From an uncultured Anaerolineaceae bacterium (lineage in GTDB: Bacteria; Chloroflexota; Dehalococcoidia; Tepidiformales; Tepidiformaceae), in assembly GCA_964507025.1 (NCBI GenBank), contig CAZDOK010000003.1:115123-179122 (forward strand): a DNA stretch of 64,000 nucleotides, in the 5' to 3' direction. The notes under the pieces were generated by a model that did no database searches, was not told where the DNA came from, and was given only the letters and a program-made list of their open reading frames with translations. Shown here piece after piece: positions 9,895 through 20,539 of this stretch. A program made the position numbers and the translations under genes. The first letter of the stretch is position 1; each line of letters opens with the position of its first letter.

Positions 9895-10149
9895 TCAGCG
9901 GGCCCGGGCGTGGCGGAAGAAGGCGGTGGCCTTCTCGACATACTCGCGCCACTGCGCGGGCACATCGTCCTCGTGGAATATGGCCGTGACCGGGCACGCC
10001 GCTTCACAGGCCGCGCAGTCGATGCAGCCGTCGGGGTCGATGAAGTACTGGCTTTCGCCCGCCTCGGTGTGGATGCAATCCACGGGGCAGACGGACACGC
10101 AGGACGCGTCCATGACGTCGATGCAGGGTTCGGTGATGACGTAAGGCAT
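9895..10149 (-). CDS. fdxA: 7Fe-type ferredoxin ([3Fe-4S] + [4Fe-4S])
   Basis: MPYVITEPCIDVMDASCVSVCPVDCIH and CIDCAACEAACPV cysteine patterns; 84 aa. Confidence 0.9.
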   Translation of the reverse strand: MPYVITEPCIDVMDASCVSVCPVDCIHTEAGESQYFIDPDGCIDCAACEAACPVTAIFHEDDVPAQWREYVEKATAFFRHARAR

Positions 10150-10159
10150 GGCAGATTCC

Positions 10160-11233
10160 TCAGTCGAAGACGATCACGCTGCGGTTGACCTCGCCGGCCT
10201 TGAGGGCGGCGTAGGCCTCGTTGATCTGCGAGAGGCTCCAGCGGCGGCTGATGAGCTCGTCGATCTTCAGGCGCTTCTGGCGGTAGAGCTCCATGAGCCA
10301 GGGCATGTCGTAGGTCTGGCGGGTGGAGCCGTAGAAGCTGCCGATGATGCCCTTTTCGCCGAGGAACGCGGCGCCCGGGAGCGACACCATCTCGGTTACC
10401 GGGATCATGCCGACGACCACGGCGCGGCCGCCTCGCTTGACCATGCCAAACGCCTGCTCGGCCGTTTTCGCGAGGCCAATGGCTTCGAAGGCGTAGTCGA
10501 CGCCCCCGTCCGTCATTTCGACGACCTTCGCAACGGCCGCGTCCTTCGATGCATCGACCACATCGGTCGCGCCGAACTGGCGAGCGGCCGCGAGCTTCGA
10601 TTCGAGCAGGTCGACCACGATGATGCGCGAGGCACCCGCGAGGACCGCCCCCTGGACGATGTTGAGCCCGACACCACCCGCGCCGATGACGGCGACGGTG
10701 GACCCCGCCGGGATCTTCGCGGTGTTGGTGACGGCGCCGACGCCGGTCATCACGCTGCAGCCCACCAGCGCAGCGCATTCGAGCGGCACGCCGTCGGGCA
10801 CTTTCACGCAGGCGTTGGCGGAGACGAGCTGATATTCGGCGAAGGCCGACATGTTGGCGAACTGGTGGAGCGTGCCGCCGTGCAGCCGGATACGGCCGGG
10901 GCGGCCCAGGCTGGCAGTGTTCATGCACAGGTACGGCTTGCCGAGCGTGCAGTTATCGCAGCTGCCGCACGATGCCACGAATGCCACGACCACGCGGTCG
11001 CCCGGCTTCACACCGGTCACGCCTGGCCCGACTCGTTCGACGACGCCGGCGGATTCGTGGCCGAGCACGATCGGGACCTGCGCCGGGTAAGAGCCCTCCA
11101 TGAAGTGGAGGTCCGAATGGCAAACGCCGCTTGCGGCGGTGCGCACCAGCACCTCTCCCGCGGCCGGCTCATCGATTTCGACATCCTCGATGACGAGCGG
11201 CTGGTTCGCCCCATACATCACTGCAGCCTTCAT
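10160..11233 (-). CDS. Zinc-dependent alcohol dehydrogenase (MDR superfamily)
   Basis: GVCHSDLH and GHESAGVV catalytic zinc motifs, structural zinc loop CGSCDNCTLGKPYLC, and Rossmann motif VIGAGGVGL. Confidence 0.9.
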   Translation of the reverse strand: MKAAVMYGANQPLVIEDVEIDEPAAGEVLVRTAASGVCHSDLHFMEGSYPAQVPIVLGHESAGVVERVGPGVTGVKPGDRVVVAFVASCGSCDNCTLGKPYLCMNTASLGRPGRIRLHGGTLHQFANMSAFAEYQLVSANACVKVPDGVPLECAALVGCSVMTGVGAVTNTAKIPAGSTVAVIGAGGVGLNIVQGAVLAGASRIIVVDLLESKLAAARQFGATDVVDASKDAAVAKVVEMTDGGVDYAFEAIGLAKTAEQAFGMVKRGGRAVVVGMIPVTEMVSLPGAAFLGEKGIIGSFYGSTRQTYDMPWLMELYRQKRLKIDELISRRWSLSQINEAYAALKAGEVNRSVIVFD

Positions 11234-11265: not shown

Positions 11266-11715
11266 TCAGAACGTGGTCTCGATGCGCGAGGACAGATCGA
11301 AGAAGTCCTGGAACGACTGGTTGAAGCGGTAGAACGCATCGCGCGCATCGCCGTCCGAGTAGCCAGCCTTCGAGCGGGCGACGCCGTTCGGGTCTTCGCC
11401 ATCGAGCGAATTGAGGGTGTACTTCCCTTCGGCGCGGCCGTGCTGCTTGATGTTCTCAAGCATCGCTCGCCAGGTCTCGGGCTCGAGTTCCAGGTAGAAG
11501 TCCACGTCCGCGAGCCCCGCTTCGTCGATCTTTTCCACCGACGTGATCGAGTAGACAGCGAAGTTGAGGCGGTAGATTTCGTCGCCGCACTTCACCGCCA
11601 TGGTCGTATCGGCCTGGCCGTTCCGCCGCTGGAGTTCGATCTCCTGGTTATAGATGTCGCGGAGTGTCTCGAACCACTCCAGCGACGGGAATTTCAGCGC
11701 AGTCATTGTCGTCAT
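11266..11715 (-). CDS. SCP2-like (sterol/lipid carrier-like) small protein, tentative
   Basis: ORF 11266..11772 trimmed to ATG 11715 (GGGAGG upstream). FPSLEWFETLRD and LELEPETWRAMLENI resemble SCP2-type domains. The assignment is weak. Confidence 0.45.
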   Translation of the reverse strand: MTTMTALKFPSLEWFETLRDIYNQEIELQRRNGQADTTMAVKCGDEIYRLNFAVYSITSVEKIDEAGLADVDFYLELEPETWRAMLENIKQHGRAEGKYTLNSLDGEDPNGVARSKAGYSDGDARDAFYRFNQSFQDFFDLSSRIETTF

Positions 11716-11839
11716 TGTGCCCAAACCTCCCGGGTGCGACGAGTCTACGGAGCGGCGTGCCGGGCCTGCCATCGGGCCGAAGGAGCAACTGGGAGGACCG
11801 AATGGTGTAGGCCCTCGGGGAAGGCGATGTGGGCCACGA

Positions 11840-12520
11840 TTACTGTTCCCGGGCAGCCCCGGCCGGCGAGCTGGTGTGCCGCAGGTACACGCTCACGGCC
11901 TGGGTACGGTTGTGCACGCCGAGTTTCTGGAAGATGTTGCCCAGGTGAGTCTTGACCGTCTTGGCGGAGATCACCAGCTCCGCGCCGATATCAGCGTTCG
12001 ACAGGCCCCGGGCCAGGCAACCGAGGATGACGCGCTCTTGCGGCGTCAGCTTCGCGATCGGGGAGCTGTCGGGCGCCGCCGCTTCACCATCTTCGAGCAC
12101 GCGCATGATGAGGCGTGATGCGGCATCCCCGCTCAGGACAGACTCATTGTGTGCCGCGAGCCGGATCGCATTGAAGAGGTACTCGGGCTCCACATCCTTC
12201 ACCAGGTAGCCCGATGCCCCGGCGCGCAGCGCGCCGAAAATCAGCTCATCATCGAGGAACGTGGACAACGCCAGGACCCGTACATCCGGGTGAGCGTTGC
12301 GGATGCTCGAAGTGGCAACGGAGCCGCTGATCCCCGGCAGACGGACATCCATCAGCACCACATCCGGGTGACAGCTCTCGATTGCCTCGATCGCCTGCTC
12401 GCCGCTTGCCGCCTCGCCCACCACCGTGATGTCGTCGACGGTTTCGATGAGCCGCTTGAGGCCCTCCCGCACGATGCGGTGGTCGTCGCAGAGCAGGACG
12501 CGGATGGTCGCGTGGGACAT
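11840..12520 (-). CDS. NarL/FixJ (LuxR-type) response regulator
   Basis: Receiver domain (IRVLLCDDH, PDVVLMDVRLPG) plus C-terminal LuxR HTH (LTPQERVILGCLARGLSNADIGAELVISAKTVKTHLGNIFQKLGV). Confidence 0.9.
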   Translation of the reverse strand: MSHATIRVLLCDDHRIVREGLKRLIETVDDITVVGEAASGEQAIEAIESCHPDVVLMDVRLPGISGSVATSSIRNAHPDVRVLALSTFLDDELIFGALRAGASGYLVKDVEPEYLFNAIRLAAHNESVLSGDAASRLIMRVLEDGEAAAPDSSPIAKLTPQERVILGCLARGLSNADIGAELVISAKTVKTHLGNIFQKLGVHNRTQAVSVYLRHTSSPAGAAREQ

Positions 12521-12532
12521 AGTTCAACTCCT

Positions 12533-13663
12533 TTAGGCCAGGGGCAGGACGCATTCGACGCGTGTGCCAAGCCCCGCGACCGCGTGCACCGAAAGCTCGC
12601 CGCCAAACGACGCCGCGCGCTCTCGCATTCCCGAAATGCCGAACGAGCCCGGTCCGGGTTCTTCGATCGCGCCCACTCCATCATCGGTGATCGCCATCAC
12701 GACGCGGTCATCGTCGATGTTCACCAGGACTTCGGCCCGCGCGGCGCCCGAATGGCGCAGCACATTGGTAAGCGCTTCCCGGGCAATCGAGAGCAGGGCC
12801 GCGATGATGTCGTCCGCCAACCGCTCGGTGGATCCGTGGACCTGGATGTCACAGGCGATCCCGGCGGCCTGCAACGGCCCGGTCACCGCCACGAGCGAAT
12901 CGGCGATGGAGCGCCCCGCCCCGGCTCCGACGCGCAGGTTCCAGATCGAACGGCGCAGTTCAACCAGGGCGGCCCGCGCCACCGTGAGCGATTCCTCGAT
13001 CGCGTCACGCGTGGTCTTGGGTACCCGCCGATCGACGCGGCCGGCCGCTTCGAGATTGAGGACGATGGCGGTGATGGACTGCGTCGCCGAGTCGTGGATG
13101 TCGCGGGCAATGCGGGCCCGCTCGCGCAGGACCGCCAGCTCCGTGCTGCGTTCAAGTTCGATATCCGAGCGAATGGCCGCCCCGATGAGGCTCGCGGCCG
13201 CTTCGCAGATGGCGGTGTGCTCTTCGCCGAGCGGACGGTTCCGGCGTTTCCAGCCGAGGATGAGCACGCCCGCCACGTGATCCACCGACCAGACCGGGAA
13301 CGACGACGCCCAGTGCAGCCCCTCTTCCCGGGCAAAGTAGACAGTTTCCTCGATTGGGGCCTGGCGGACGTGCCCCGCCACCGCCACCAGGTTGACGAAG
13401 GCCTCCATCGTCTCCTGGAGCTCGCCGCCCGTCATCTGTTCGATGGTGTAGGGAGTGAGCGAATAGGTGTAGACCAGGGGTGCGGCCCCGCGCACAACGC
13501 TGCGCTGGTAGAAGACGGCCGCATCCGCCCCAACAATGCCCGCCAGGCAGCGAACGGTTTGCTCGATGCGGGCCCGCTGCGACCCGGACGAAGACAGCAC
13601 CCGGGCGATCTCGCCAAGGGCCGAGGCAGCGGTCGTGCGGGCCGGGGAGCTGGCTCTGGGCAT
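12533..13663 (-). CDS. Cytoplasmic GAF-domain sensor histidine kinase (HisKA_3 / NarX-DesK type)
   Basis: No TM segment. H-box RERARIARDIHDSATQ. HATPase_c region (LLSIAREALTNVLRHSGA, ITDDGVG, GISGMRERA). Stop lies 13 nt upstream of the response-regulator start. Confidence 0.85.
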   Translation of the reverse strand: MPRASSPARTTAASALGEIARVLSSSGSQRARIEQTVRCLAGIVGADAAVFYQRSVVRGAAPLVYTYSLTPYTIEQMTGGELQETMEAFVNLVAVAGHVRQAPIEETVYFAREEGLHWASSFPVWSVDHVAGVLILGWKRRNRPLGEEHTAICEAAASLIGAAIRSDIELERSTELAVLRERARIARDIHDSATQSITAIVLNLEAAGRVDRRVPKTTRDAIEESLTVARAALVELRRSIWNLRVGAGAGRSIADSLVAVTGPLQAAGIACDIQVHGSTERLADDIIAALLSIAREALTNVLRHSGAARAEVLVNIDDDRVVMAITDDGVGAIEEPGPGSFGISGMRERAASFGGELSVHAVAGLGTRVECVLPLA

Positions 13664-13723: not shown

Positions 13724-13785
13724 GAGAGGAAAACGTGCCGGGCCTCGTGGCCGGGGAGCGGGATCGCCCGTCCACGAGGCCCGGC
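13724..13785 (-). terminator. Intrinsic terminator downstream of the diiron gene pair
   Basis: Perfect 14-bp arms, GCCGGGCCTCGTGG (13737-13750) and CCACGAGGCCCGGC (13772-13785). The loop can itself pair (CGGG-atcg-CCCG). On the minus strand the hairpin is followed by ACGUUUUCCUCUC. Confidence 0.55.
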
Positions 13786-13821
13786 AAGGGGGAAACCTGC
13801 GCCAGCCTTATTGCCGTGCGC

Positions 13822-15039
13822 TCATCCTGCGGCGACCGGCAGGCCGCCCGTGCGGGCTACCGCCACCAGCCCGGGGCTGACCGCCGCGTCACGATTCATC
13901 GAGATGGAATCGAGCAGGCTAAGATACCGCTGGAGCTGTTCGGAGCGCAGATCGCGCAGCCTCTCGATGCCCACCGCCAGGCGTTCCGTCCCGCCCGCGA
14001 ACAGCACCGCGAGCGCCTCCGAGACGGCCGGGCTGTGGACCAGCTCATCGGCCAGGGCAGCCTCGGCCCTCCCCAGGAACCCCTGCAGGTACTCACGGCC
14101 ATTGGGGTGGTACTGCAGATAGTACGCGAGGTGCCGCACACCGTACTCGAGGTGCCGCCGGCTATCGCGCGCCAGCAGCCCGAAGAGCTTGCGATCGACC
14201 GCCGACGGGCACGCCTCGGCCAGCTTCTCGAACGTGGCGACCTCGTAGACCTTGTACACGAAGCACACCGACGTGATCCACTCGGTGGCCTTGAGCGCCC
14301 CAAACCACGTGCGGTAGATCGTGCCGAGGTTGCTCTGGAGCAGGCCGCCGCCGTTGGCGAGCGCGCGCTTGCGCAGCGCCTCAACCTTGCGCCCCGCATC
14401 GAAGTTCTGCACCGAGAGCAGGTTCTTCACATCGTGGAAACCGTAGGCGATCCGCTCCTCCCACGCGGCGATGATCTTTTGCTCGGCAAGACCGTTCTCG
14501 GCGAACGACGTGGCGATCTGGCAGATGGCACGCTCGATCTCGTCGGGCTGCGTTTCGAGGGCGGGCCAGTCGATATCGACGGCGGGGATCCAGCGGTCGC
14601 GGATGCCCTGCTCGTAGAGCACATCAGCGTCTTCGGCCCAGACCTCGCTCTTCGTGTAGATGCTGTAGGGGCCGGGCATGTAGGCGCCGGGCGTGGGATG
14701 CGACCCCAGCGGCGTATCGTTTTCATACGGCCAGTGGTCGGGAACGGTGCCATACGTACCGATGTTGATTTCGCGCATGCCCAGGCCGTTGGGCCCCGGC
14801 CGGGCGCGCATGCCGAGCTGCGTCGTGGGGCGTGCCCACTTGAAGCTCATCCCGGCGATCGCGGGATTCTCCGTGGCAGCCCGGAGGAACGAGCGAGCCG
14901 ATTCCACATCCAGTTTCAGCGCCAGCAATGAGTGCACGGTATCGACCGGGAGCGCCGATTGCTCGAACTCCGCAACAAGGTCGTCCGGCCAGCCTATCTC
15001 GCCAGCGCGAAGCTTTACCCCTTCAGCAAGTGCCGCCAT
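13822..15039 (-). CDS. Ferritin-like superfamily protein; paralogue of the adjacent diiron protein with degenerate metal ligands
   Basis: Alignable by eye with ORF 15045..16103 (KSEVWAEDADVLYEQGIRDRWIPAVDIDW vs KSDVWSESALLLYEEAMQRQWSSAVDIPW; RKRALANGGG vs RKRALVNGGG). The ExxH motifs of the partner read FDAGRK and RDSRRH here. Confidence 0.6.
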   Translation of the reverse strand: MAALAEGVKLRAGEIGWPDDLVAEFEQSALPVDTVHSLLALKLDVESARSFLRAATENPAIAGMSFKWARPTTQLGMRARPGPNGLGMREINIGTYGTVPDHWPYENDTPLGSHPTPGAYMPGPYSIYTKSEVWAEDADVLYEQGIRDRWIPAVDIDWPALETQPDEIERAICQIATSFAENGLAEQKIIAAWEERIAYGFHDVKNLLSVQNFDAGRKVEALRKRALANGGGLLQSNLGTIYRTWFGALKATEWITSVCFVYKVYEVATFEKLAEACPSAVDRKLFGLLARDSRRHLEYGVRHLAYYLQYHPNGREYLQGFLGRAEAALADELVHSPAVSEALAVLFAGGTERLAVGIERLRDLRSEQLQRYLSLLDSISMNRDAAVSPGLVAVARTGGLPVAAG

Positions 15040-15044
15040 TCCGT

Positions 15045-16103
15045 TTAGTCCTCCAGGAACATTTTCATGCTCGGAGCCATCCGCTGGCGGCGGTCGCCAA
15101 GGCCGATGACTTCGAGCCGGTGCATGTATTCGTTGATCTGCTTCTTGCGCATGATCAGGAGCTTCTTGAAGCCTTCATCGATGTTCTTGATGCCGCCGCC
15201 GGCGAGCACGGCCAGCGCCTCGCTCGTCGCCGGGTTCGTCGTGAGACTGCCCTGCGACTGGCCGAGTGCACCTTCCTGGATATCCAGGTAGTGGTGGAGC
15301 TGCTCCTTGCGTTCCGGTTCGACATCCATGAGGTACTTCAGATGGGTCACGCCGAACGCCAGGTGCCGGGACTCGTCCTGGGCCGAAAGCCGGAAGATCC
15401 GCTTCTCCGCCTCGTTGTTCGAGATGAGCTCGCCCATCCGGAAGATCGTCTGCACAAAGCCCTCGCCAACGAGGTGCAGGCGCGCGGTCATCTCCGTGAA
15501 ATCGTCCGCCGAGAGCAGCTGCGATGCGCCGAACCCCGCGTCGGTCAGGCCGCCGCCGTTGACCAGCGCCCGCTTGCGGAACACATCCTCGTGCCGCGAC
15601 TCATCCATGAGCTGAGTGCCAAGGAACAGCTGCGTCTCGAACTGCTCGGGGTGGACGGTGCCCATGAACCGGCCAGGGAGGTCACCCGCGATGAATTCCA
15701 CCTGGGTGAGGAAGGTGCACAGCGTGCACATCGCCATCTCGATGTCGTCGGGGAGCTCCTTGATTTCCTCCCACGGGATATCGACAGCGGAGGACCACTG
15801 GCGCTGCATCGCCTCTTCATAGAGGAGGAGGGCTGATTCGGACCAGACATCGGACTTCGTCTTGTACTGGTTGCGGTGCGCCGCCGACCGCGGGTCGGGC
15901 CGCGCGCCACGCATGGCCAAGGTCGCCCAGCCGGCATCGGGCGGGGCCTCACCATAGATCGGCAGCTGGCGAAGGTTTTCGAGCGTGAGGCCCTTGGCGC
16001 CCGGTTCGGCGCGCGTGCCCCAGCCGTCCTCGATATTGAGCCAGGACAGGTCCAGTCCCGGTTCCATGACCTTTGTGGTCGATGATGCGCTCATGCTTTG
16101 CAT
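15045..16103 (-). CDS. Ferritin-like diiron-carboxylate protein (AurF / acyl-ACP desaturase / R2-like superfamily; family unassigned)
   Basis: Four-helix-bundle ligand pattern: QVEFIAGD, LMDESRHEDVF (ExxH), LVGEGFV and AQDESRHLAFG (ExxH). Stop lies 5 nt before the start of the paralogue. Confidence 0.65.
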   Translation of the reverse strand: MQSMSASSTTKVMEPGLDLSWLNIEDGWGTRAEPGAKGLTLENLRQLPIYGEAPPDAGWATLAMRGARPDPRSAAHRNQYKTKSDVWSESALLLYEEAMQRQWSSAVDIPWEEIKELPDDIEMAMCTLCTFLTQVEFIAGDLPGRFMGTVHPEQFETQLFLGTQLMDESRHEDVFRKRALVNGGGLTDAGFGASQLLSADDFTEMTARLHLVGEGFVQTIFRMGELISNNEAEKRIFRLSAQDESRHLAFGVTHLKYLMDVEPERKEQLHHYLDIQEGALGQSQGSLTTNPATSEALAVLAGGGIKNIDEGFKKLLIMRKKQINEYMHRLEVIGLGDRRQRMAPSMKMFLED

Positions 16104-16185: not shown

Positions 16186-16211
16186 GGAGGACCGGAAGTC
16201 CTAGGACCTCC
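16186..16211. promoter_or_regulatory. Nested palindromes in the divergent promoter region (candidate operator)
   Basis: GGAGGACCGGAAGTCCTAGGACCTCC. AGGAC/GTCCT half-sites occur three times in alternating orientation, including the perfect 10-bp palindrome GTCCTAGGAC (16198-16207). Lies between the diiron operon and the ABC importer operon. Confidence 0.25.
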
Positions 16212-20251: not shown

Positions 20252-20539
20252 ATGCCTGTGTACGAATTTCGCTGCCAGCTGTGTGGCCACAAAGCTGAAG
20301 TGCTGGCCAGGCGGGTGGGGTCAGCGGTGACGGAACCGGAGTGCCCGGCCGGTCAACCAGGACATCGCATGGTCCGCATCATGAGCACGTTCGCTCGCCG
20401 GCTCACCGAGGCGGACAAGCTCGCCGAGGCGGAGGCGCAGTACGGGGCCGAAGTCGAAGCCGTCATGGGCAAGGGACCCGATATCGCGCGCCTCGCCCGG
20501 CGCTACGACACGCTCTCGGCCGACCTGCCCCCGGAGTAA
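20252..20539 (+). CDS. FmdB-family zinc-ribbon small protein
   Basis: MPVYEFRCQLCGH N-terminus, typical of the CxxC_CxxC_SSSS family. The second metal pair is atypical (ECPAGQPGH). Confidence 0.7.
   Translation: MPVYEFRCQLCGHKAEVLARRVGSAVTEPECPAGQPGHRMVRIMSTFARRLTEADKLAEAEAQYGAEVEAVMGKGPDIARLARRYDTLSADLPPE

Follow-up and report, generated by a model that had tools for sequence, protein, structure and literature searches.

Oxidases of the R2-like, ligand-binding type (R2lox proteins) have no agreed physiological role. R2lox proteins and the R2 subunits of class I ribonucleotide reductase (RNR) alike form homodimers, although the yeast Rnr2-Rnr4 heterodimer, in which Rnr4 is without iron ligands, provides a precedent for an active subunit that is joined by a ligand-deficient paralogue. 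Two papers describe R2lox as binding a fatty-acid ligand and activating O2 (PMC9314684) and report GkR2loxI as an alkane monooxygenase (PMC10867098). Among other ferritin-like oxygenases, BioE is a diiron enzyme that cleaves C14-C18 acyl-coenzyme A (acyl-CoA) or acyl-acyl carrier protein (acyl-ACP) and functions as a homodimer (PMC12704756), and in the COQ7-COQ9 system a separate lipid-binding partner presents the substrate (10.1101/2021.11.15.468694). Here we describe two adjacent genes, called A and B, in a 64,000-nucleotide stretch of DNA from an uncultured Anaerolineaceae bacterium (assembly GCA_964507025.1, contig CAZDOK010000003.1, positions 115,123 to 179,122), and we refer to this whole stretch as the window. 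The pair is probably a ferritin-like dimetal oxidase with a pseudo-subunit, and represents an uncharacterised family of a known enzyme type.

An earlier note on this DNA reported two related open reading frames (ORFs) for proteins of 352 and 405 amino acids, and the coordinates, the spacing and the relationship that it gave all agree with our analysis. BLASTP aligns the two proteins with 30% identity over 338 columns (E 4e-45). The two common blocks that the note quoted are also present. The first reads KSDVW..LYEE..W..AVDIPW in A and KSEVW..LYEQ..W..AVDIDW in B, and the second reads RKRALVNGGG in A and RKRALANGGG in B. Judged from these sequences, A and B are true paralogues. Gene B codes for an extra N-terminal helical region of approximately 60 amino acids.

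The upstream protein had been credited with a full carboxylate-bridged diiron pattern, and this assignment stands. The motifs QVEFIAGD, MDESRHE, VGEGF and QDESRHL of A carry the ligands E136, E168/H171, E214 and E244/H247, such that the six-ligand pattern E, ExxH, E, ExxH is complete, whereas B does not keep this pattern. At the two ExxH positions B reads FDAGRK and RDSRRH, as had been noticed, but the extent of the loss is larger than the three or more ligands that were estimated at the time. The corresponding columns of B hold G183, A215, K218, K263, S293 and H296, and five of the six ligands are therefore lost.

The same columns were mapped in a family alignment of 306 sequences, including 119 A-type and 120 B-type proteins, and the result is that B does not retain all of the metal ligands. 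The EEHEEH arrangement is found in 118 of the 119 A-type proteins, with one exception that carries Ala at the E214 column, whereas the columns of the 120 B-type proteins read G/A, mostly A, K, K, S and H. Among the 83 genome loci that we collected, EEHEEH is kept in every one of 82 A-type proteins and a ligand glutamate is retained in none of the 63 more diverse B-type proteins. The identities of the replacement residues vary among B clades. Second-sphere residues are conserved in A and B alike (D167, R176, K177, R178, D243 and R246), and in B each of the two DExRH motifs still has its second-sphere Asp and Arg. Likewise, both subunits have invariant RKR and NGGG residues. A-type proteins have more invariant residues around the site, including His210, which is located four residues ahead of Glu214.

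The TAA stop codon of gene A (15047-15045) and the ATG start codon of gene B (15039-15037) are separated by 5 nucleotides, and a GGAGGA sequence resides within the last codons of gene A, 10 nucleotides ahead of the gene B ATG. This short gap and the Shine-Dalgarno-like motif suggest that translation of A and B is coupled. A hairpin located beyond the end of gene B was spotted by eye, and folding then confirmed that it is stable (-45.6 kcal/mol, z -5.2), with none of 200 shuffled sequences being equally stable. The hairpin is probably the terminator that closes the unit, and because such a strong structure with a U-rich tail follows gene B, the A-B pair looks like a self-contained bicistronic unit. 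A scan for consensus promoters and terminators was uninformative and missed this hairpin, whose apical part probably exceeds the 8-nucleotide loop limit of the scan. On the other side of the pair, the 206-base-pair divergent spacer between gene A and an ABC importer carries AGGTCCTAGGACT at window positions 16186-16211. This sequence includes the perfect 10-base-pair palindrome GTCCTAGGAC, which is followed by another GGTCC half-site and is a candidate operator.

Neither A nor B reaches the cut-off of any Pfam or NCBIfam model. The curated models that A matches best are those for R2-like ligand-binding oxidases, with scores of 33.3 bits for NF006200 (cut-off 194, E 3e-8), 22.2 bits for NF006202 (cut-off 315) and 14.4 bits for NF006198 (cut-off 274). 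Gene A also scores 14 bits against the RNR R2 model PF00268, which does not meet the gathering score of 33.6, and gene B has no match to the oxidase models or to PF00268. The earlier note had remarked that the pair does not fit the PaaA/PaaC family or the soluble diiron monooxygenases, and in agreement with this, neither protein matches PF05138 (PaaA/PaaC) or PF02332 (soluble diiron monooxygenase hydroxylase) at E values of up to 1. When a family profile was compared with PDB sequences, R2lox structures were the best matches (E about 5e-5) and nothing was nearer.

The AlphaFold2 model of A, which has a predicted local distance difference test (pLDDT) score of 85.5, places the ligands on four long helices (119-147, 152-181, 202-227 and 231-261), and the model of B (pLDDT 91.9) likewise places the ligand positions on four long helices. 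A Foldseek search of PDB with the A model gives only RNR R2 and R2lox structures among the top 50 matches, with template modelling (TM) scores of 0.45-0.65 and E values of about 1e-4. R2lox and R2 also lead the matches for B, more weakly than for A, and are followed by the methane monooxygenase hydroxylase (MMOH) and PaaC, with the PaaC structure 4iit_C giving a TM score of 0.60 when normalised by target. The profile, AlphaFold2 and Foldseek results together establish A and B as R2-like members of the ferritin-like superfamily that constitute their own family. No characterised family with a known substrate claims either protein in the profile hidden Markov model (HMM) searches or in the fold searches, and our searches of the literature turned up no paper about this family. 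The proteins form a bacterial family that is widespread and as yet unnamed, for which neither a solved structure nor a substrate is known.

The nearest family to A is R2lox, both by HMM and by fold. The two have in common the E/ExxH/E/ExxH six-ligand site carried on the same four helices, the lack of a dedicated reductase and a Phe in place of the radical tyrosine of R2, where Phe175 of A aligns with Phe109 of R2lox. A Phe at this position is also present in Chlamydia class Ic R2. There are also several differences. A scores far under the curated cut-offs (33 versus 194 bits), its structural similarity is modest as judged by the TM scores given above, and it carries about 80 extra N-terminal residues. 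Furthermore, R2lox forms a homodimer whereas A has a ligand-dead paralogue as its partner gene product, and orphan small proteins accompany A-B. R2lox is also marked by a fatty-acid ligand at the metal site and by an Mn/Fe cofactor. The residues that form the ether cross-link in GkR2loxI, Val72 and Tyr162, are replaced by Ala139 and Leu209 in A, according to a register set from the ligands (E69 = E136; E167-G = E214-G) that maps sequences and does not superpose structures. Class I RNR R2 proteins have the fold class and the ligand pattern in common with A, but A has no radical tyrosine and is under the Pfam threshold, and the genome is without a class I large subunit.

The earlier note drew an analogy with PaaA/PaaC and with the alpha and beta subunits of soluble diiron monooxygenases. 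The part of this analogy that concerns architecture, an intact site together with a dead one, was borne out, but the nearest relatives prove to be R2lox and RNR R2 instead. Those systems also combine a catalytic diiron subunit with a ligand-free homologue and have small accessory proteins encoded in the operon, and both PaaC and MMOH are among the weak fold matches of B. In contrast, their subunit sizes are different, their Pfam models match neither protein, the A-B loci are without a reductase or known effector protein, and R2 and R2lox are nearer in fold. BioE and COQ7-COQ9 can be compared with the pair by analogy alone, as recent examples of ferritin-like oxygenases that act on long hydrophobic chains. 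BioE differs in being a homodimer linked to biotin genes.

A total of 1585 database proteins match A, as do 663 clusters at 50% identity. Most carriers belong to the Dehalococcoidia and Tepidiformaceae, while some are Gammaproteobacteria (Pseudomonadales) or Binatia, and they include cultured Tepidiforma species that have the A-B pair. Of 101 genomes sampled from the class, 36 contain the family, mostly as adjacent pairs numbering about one to five per genome, and its presence is mostly all-or-none by taxonomic family. The A subunits are 60-80% identical across much of the class.

In a phylogenetic tree, one branch with a support of 100 separates A from B, as would be expected if a single ancient duplication had been accompanied by a single loss of the metal site. 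The co-occurrence that the earlier note proposed to test is evident, since gene B directly follows gene A in 63 of 82 loci and the distances among A proteins correlate with those among the adjacent B proteins (Mantel r 0.91, with none of 999 permutations as high). This correlation arises partly from shared genome ancestry, but it is also seen among paralogous pairs inside single genomes. B evolves faster, with a mean p-distance of 0.62 compared with 0.46 for A. At some loci A is found alone, and these A-only loci form whole clades, in genomes that hold other pairs as well as unlinked B genes. In another genome of the class, two adjacent genes (G006:C11:20061-22231) match A at 50-52% identity. 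This tandem looks like A-A rather than A-B, and the second copy could still have its metal site.

The genome represented by the window is 99.9% complete and carries three A-B pairs. The A protein of the second pair (contig C2, L013 8491-10895) is 75% identical to the A protein of the window, and that of the third pair (contig C1, L014 9307-11670) is 59% identical. The B gene on contig C2 was considered as a possible frameshifted pseudogene, but this was rejected because the run of N characters there is an assembly gap at the repeat coding for NGGG. Divergently upstream of the third pair (L014 8191-9136) are a gene for a DtxR/IdeR-family repressor with an FeoA domain and an ORF for a 63-amino-acid cysteine-rich protein, and the small ORF is found in the same position in L038, L039, L045 and L053. 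This arrangement hints at metal-responsive control of the third pair, or at a dedicated small redox protein.

Table 1. Features of the A-B locus and its surroundings, with positions numbered from the first nucleotide of the window.
Feature	Position	Strand	Description
Gene A	15045..16103	minus	352 aa; R2-like ferritin-fold subunit with complete dimetal site
Gene B	13822..15039	minus	405 aa; paralogue of gene A, metal site lost
GGAGGA	15049..15054	minus	Shine-Dalgarno-like motif for gene B, read from sequence
Hairpin	13736..13786	minus	35 nt past the gene B stop; followed by ACGUUUUCCUCU, a U-rich tail
Two-component system	11840..13663	minus	HisKA_3 histidine kinase at 12533-13663 with LuxR-type response regulator at 11840-12520, from Pfam; between gene B and the 149-aa gene
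149-aa orphan protein	11266..11715	minus	FPSxEWF motif; alternative upstream start at 11772; homologue of the one or two small proteins encoded directly after B in distant cassettes
Alcohol dehydrogenase	10160-11233		class III / NDMA-type zinc enzyme; between the 149-aa gene and the ferredoxin gene
84-aa ferredoxin	9895..10149	minus	FdxA type; Fer4 domains; FdxA_Actino match under cut-off
95-aa zinc-ribbon protein	20252..20539	plus	FmdB family; homologue of the last cassette gene; fourth cysteine missing

The genes that flank A-B differ among lineages, and the only neighbours that recur above background code for an orphan protein of 140-150 amino acids and a zinc-ribbon protein. In distant relatives, these genes form a cassette composed of A, B, one or two of the orphan proteins and an FmdB-type zinc-ribbon protein with four cysteines. 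About 25 loci, drawn from two phyla (Chloroflexota and Gammaproteobacteria), show this same fixed order. The window carries homologues of both accessory proteins, and these are located apart from A-B, with the two-component system and the divergent family-5 ABC importer in between.

The 149-amino-acid protein clusters with 38 neighbours of A-B pairs from other genomes. It has no Pfam or NCBIfam match, and all 86 of its database homologues are annotated as hypothetical and are without a Pfam domain. Two profile searches against PDB gave only weak matches to Thermus SCP2 (2cx7 and 1wfr, E 0.1-0.2), and the protein is possibly SCP2-like. The genome has only two copies of this family. The second, of 145 amino acids, is on contig C12 (L107 8023-8457), beside luciferase-like and other ORFs and far from any A-B pair, which shows that the accessory family is not confined to A-B loci. 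The 95-amino-acid zinc-ribbon protein scores 35.4 bits against PF09723 and 36.6 bits against TIGR02605, above the respective cut-offs of 34.4 and 31.3, and aligns over 71-97 residues with cassette members from 19 loci. A caveat on linking this copy to A-B is that the zinc-ribbon family has nine matches in the genome.

Other genes in the island have less consistent associations. The ferredoxin is a candidate electron donor whose link to the pair is weak. Its homologue has the same position in L108, which is an 87%-identical relative, and is upstream of A in L095, and the ferredoxin was rejected as a conserved partner of A-B because it recurs in only these two other loci. In L108 the gene order is A, B, kinase, regulator, 150-amino-acid protein and ferredoxin. 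The alcohol dehydrogenase gene is absent from this syntenic locus and was likewise rejected as a conserved partner; it seems to have been inserted into the island recently. The position of the kinase and regulator genes is conserved only in the closest relatives, and we treat them solely as context. Approximately 170 N-terminal residues of the kinase, corresponding to the sensor region, have no Pfam match.

We consider it reasonably probable that A and B form a heterodimeric dimetal oxidase composed of a catalytic and a structural subunit. In this model, the two proteins would be translated together from a bicistronic transcript. The A protein would be the catalytic subunit, an R2-like four-helix bundle that holds two metal ions (Fe/Fe or Mn/Fe) via four carboxylates and two histidines and that activates O2. 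The B protein would be a duplicate whose ligands were replaced while its fold and its second-sphere Asp and Arg residues were preserved, with lysines now occupying the former metal site. B would most likely stand in for one protomer, the second, of an ancestral R2-type dimer and serve as a structural or partner-docking subunit. We infer heterodimer formation and oxygenase chemistry from the translational coupling, the strict adjacency and the co-inheritance of the genes, and from analogy.

As has been proposed for R2lox, the likeliest reaction is one in which an organic ligand bound by the enzyme undergoes a two-electron oxidation, for example hydroxylation. Oxidation of a bound and possibly hydrophobic molecule is suggested by the published accounts of fatty-acid binding (PMC9314684) and of alkane hydroxylation (PMC10867098) by R2lox. 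The orphan protein of 145-150 amino acids, which is possibly SCP2-like, may present the substrate, and a small iron-sulfur or four-cysteine protein may supply electrons. O2 activation, the nature of the substrate and these accessory roles are likewise inferred, and our confidence in any class of substrate, possibly a hydrophobic one, is much lower than our confidence in the heterodimeric architecture.

Several observations weigh against this model. The existence of A-alone loci, and of orphan B genes in the same genomes, indicates that pairing in cis is not obligatory and that A might form homodimers. No reductase gene is conserved near A-B across the 83 loci, and the SCP2 matches of the accessory protein are weak. 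Moreover, because the flanking genes vary by lineage, genomic context does not indicate a substrate, and because the similarity to R2lox is distant (TM no higher than 0.65), shared chemistry is not assured.

Other explanations for the pair were also weighed. The substrate might be an acyl-CoA or acyl-ACP thioester, in which case A-B would be a functional analogue of the phenylacetyl-CoA epoxidase PaaABC or of BioE and the RKR..NGGG residues would bind phosphopantetheine or nucleotide phosphates. The invariance of these residues in A and B, the presence of PaaC (4iit_C) among the Foldseek matches of B, and the example of BioE, a homodimeric ferritin-like oxygenase that acts on C14-C18 acyl-CoA/ACP (PMC12704756), are in keeping with this idea, and genes for CoA-transferase III, enoyl-CoA hydratase and short-chain dehydrogenases are found near many pairs. 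However, a CoA-transferase III gene is within 8 kb in 18 of the 83 loci, which is about the chance level. Five genomes have 33-107 such genes each, so their proximity carries no weight, and a CoA-thioester link via these neighbours was rejected as being not above background. The window has no CoA-metabolism gene beside A-B, PF05138 is not matched even at E 1, and the RKR block might just as well belong to a dimer interface or take part in partner docking. We therefore regard a thioester substrate as unlikely. It is distinctly unlikely that the two proteins act separately, with A as a homodimeric oxidase and B as a metal-free ligand-binding, regulatory or chaperone-like pseudoenzyme that is encoded nearby for co-expression only. 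The 5-nucleotide spacing and the coupled ribosome-binding site, the adjacency of A and B in most loci, the co-divergence even between paralogous pairs of one genome, and the retention by B of residues flanking the ligand helices all speak for a joint function. Whole A-only clades and orphan B genes would be easier to explain if the proteins were independent, as would the faster evolution of B and the homodimeric state of R2, R2lox and BioE (PMC12704756 for the last of these), but the A-only genomes also have unlinked B genes whose products could pair in trans.

Membership in the ferritin-like superfamily also brings to mind a role in iron or manganese handling, where the pair would be a ferroxidase, a storage protein or a metal-sparing protein and not an oxygenase for an organic substrate. 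The DtxR/IdeR-family repressor that is encoded upstream of the third pair and its clade (7 loci, with the small cysteine-rich ORF in 5 of 7) might be taken in the same sense. However, this association is limited to a single clade to which the window pair does not belong, and metal-responsive control would fit metal-dependent isozymes equally well. In fold and in size the proteins resemble R2 and R2lox rather than 24-mer or 12-mer ferritins, and the presence of two DExRH motifs is a typical trait of enzymes that activate O2, making this explanation highly improbable. Given that R2 is among the best fold and profile matches, and given the Rnr2-Rnr4 precedent, we also evaluated A as a divergent radical-generating R2 for RNR or another radical enzyme, with B as an inactive partner. 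This proposal is largely refuted and was rejected. The sole RNR of the genome is a B12-dependent class II enzyme of the NrdJ type (NF006417, 1011 bits, cut-off 961), the searches of the genome revealed no large subunit of class I, and no protein encoded there, A included, reaches PF00268. In addition, Phe175 occupies the radical tyrosine position, four residues past the first ligand histidine, and a number of one to five pairs per genome is unlike a housekeeping role.

A heterodimeric oxidase composed of A and B thus remains our preferred interpretation, and a more speculative extension of it includes the accessory proteins. In this tentative and rather doubtful proposal, A, B, the orphan protein or proteins and the four-cysteine protein would constitute a soluble dimetal (possibly Mn/Fe) oxygenase of several components whose class has so far gone unrecognised, and would act respectively as catalytic subunit, pseudo-subunit, dedicated substrate carrier and small redox protein. 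The class would have multiplied in aerobic Dehalococcoidia, to between one and five copies per genome, would also be present in marine Gammaproteobacteria, and would oxidise hydrophobic or recalcitrant organic matter.

New ferritin-like oxygenases still yield unexpected chemistry, as the recent case of BioE illustrates. The family described here is notable for its large size, its occurrence in roughly one third of the genomes sampled from the class, the strong conservation of its A subunits, its multiple copies per genome and its invisibility to Pfam and NCBIfam models. The A-B pair is a clean natural case of an active subunit with a pseudo-subunit, and could show how R2-type dimers became asymmetric. 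Because cultured Tepidiforma species carry the pair, expression and biochemical studies are feasible. The family would be relevant to carbon cycling by Chloroflexota if its substrates turn out to be hydrocarbons, lipids or refractory dissolved organic matter.

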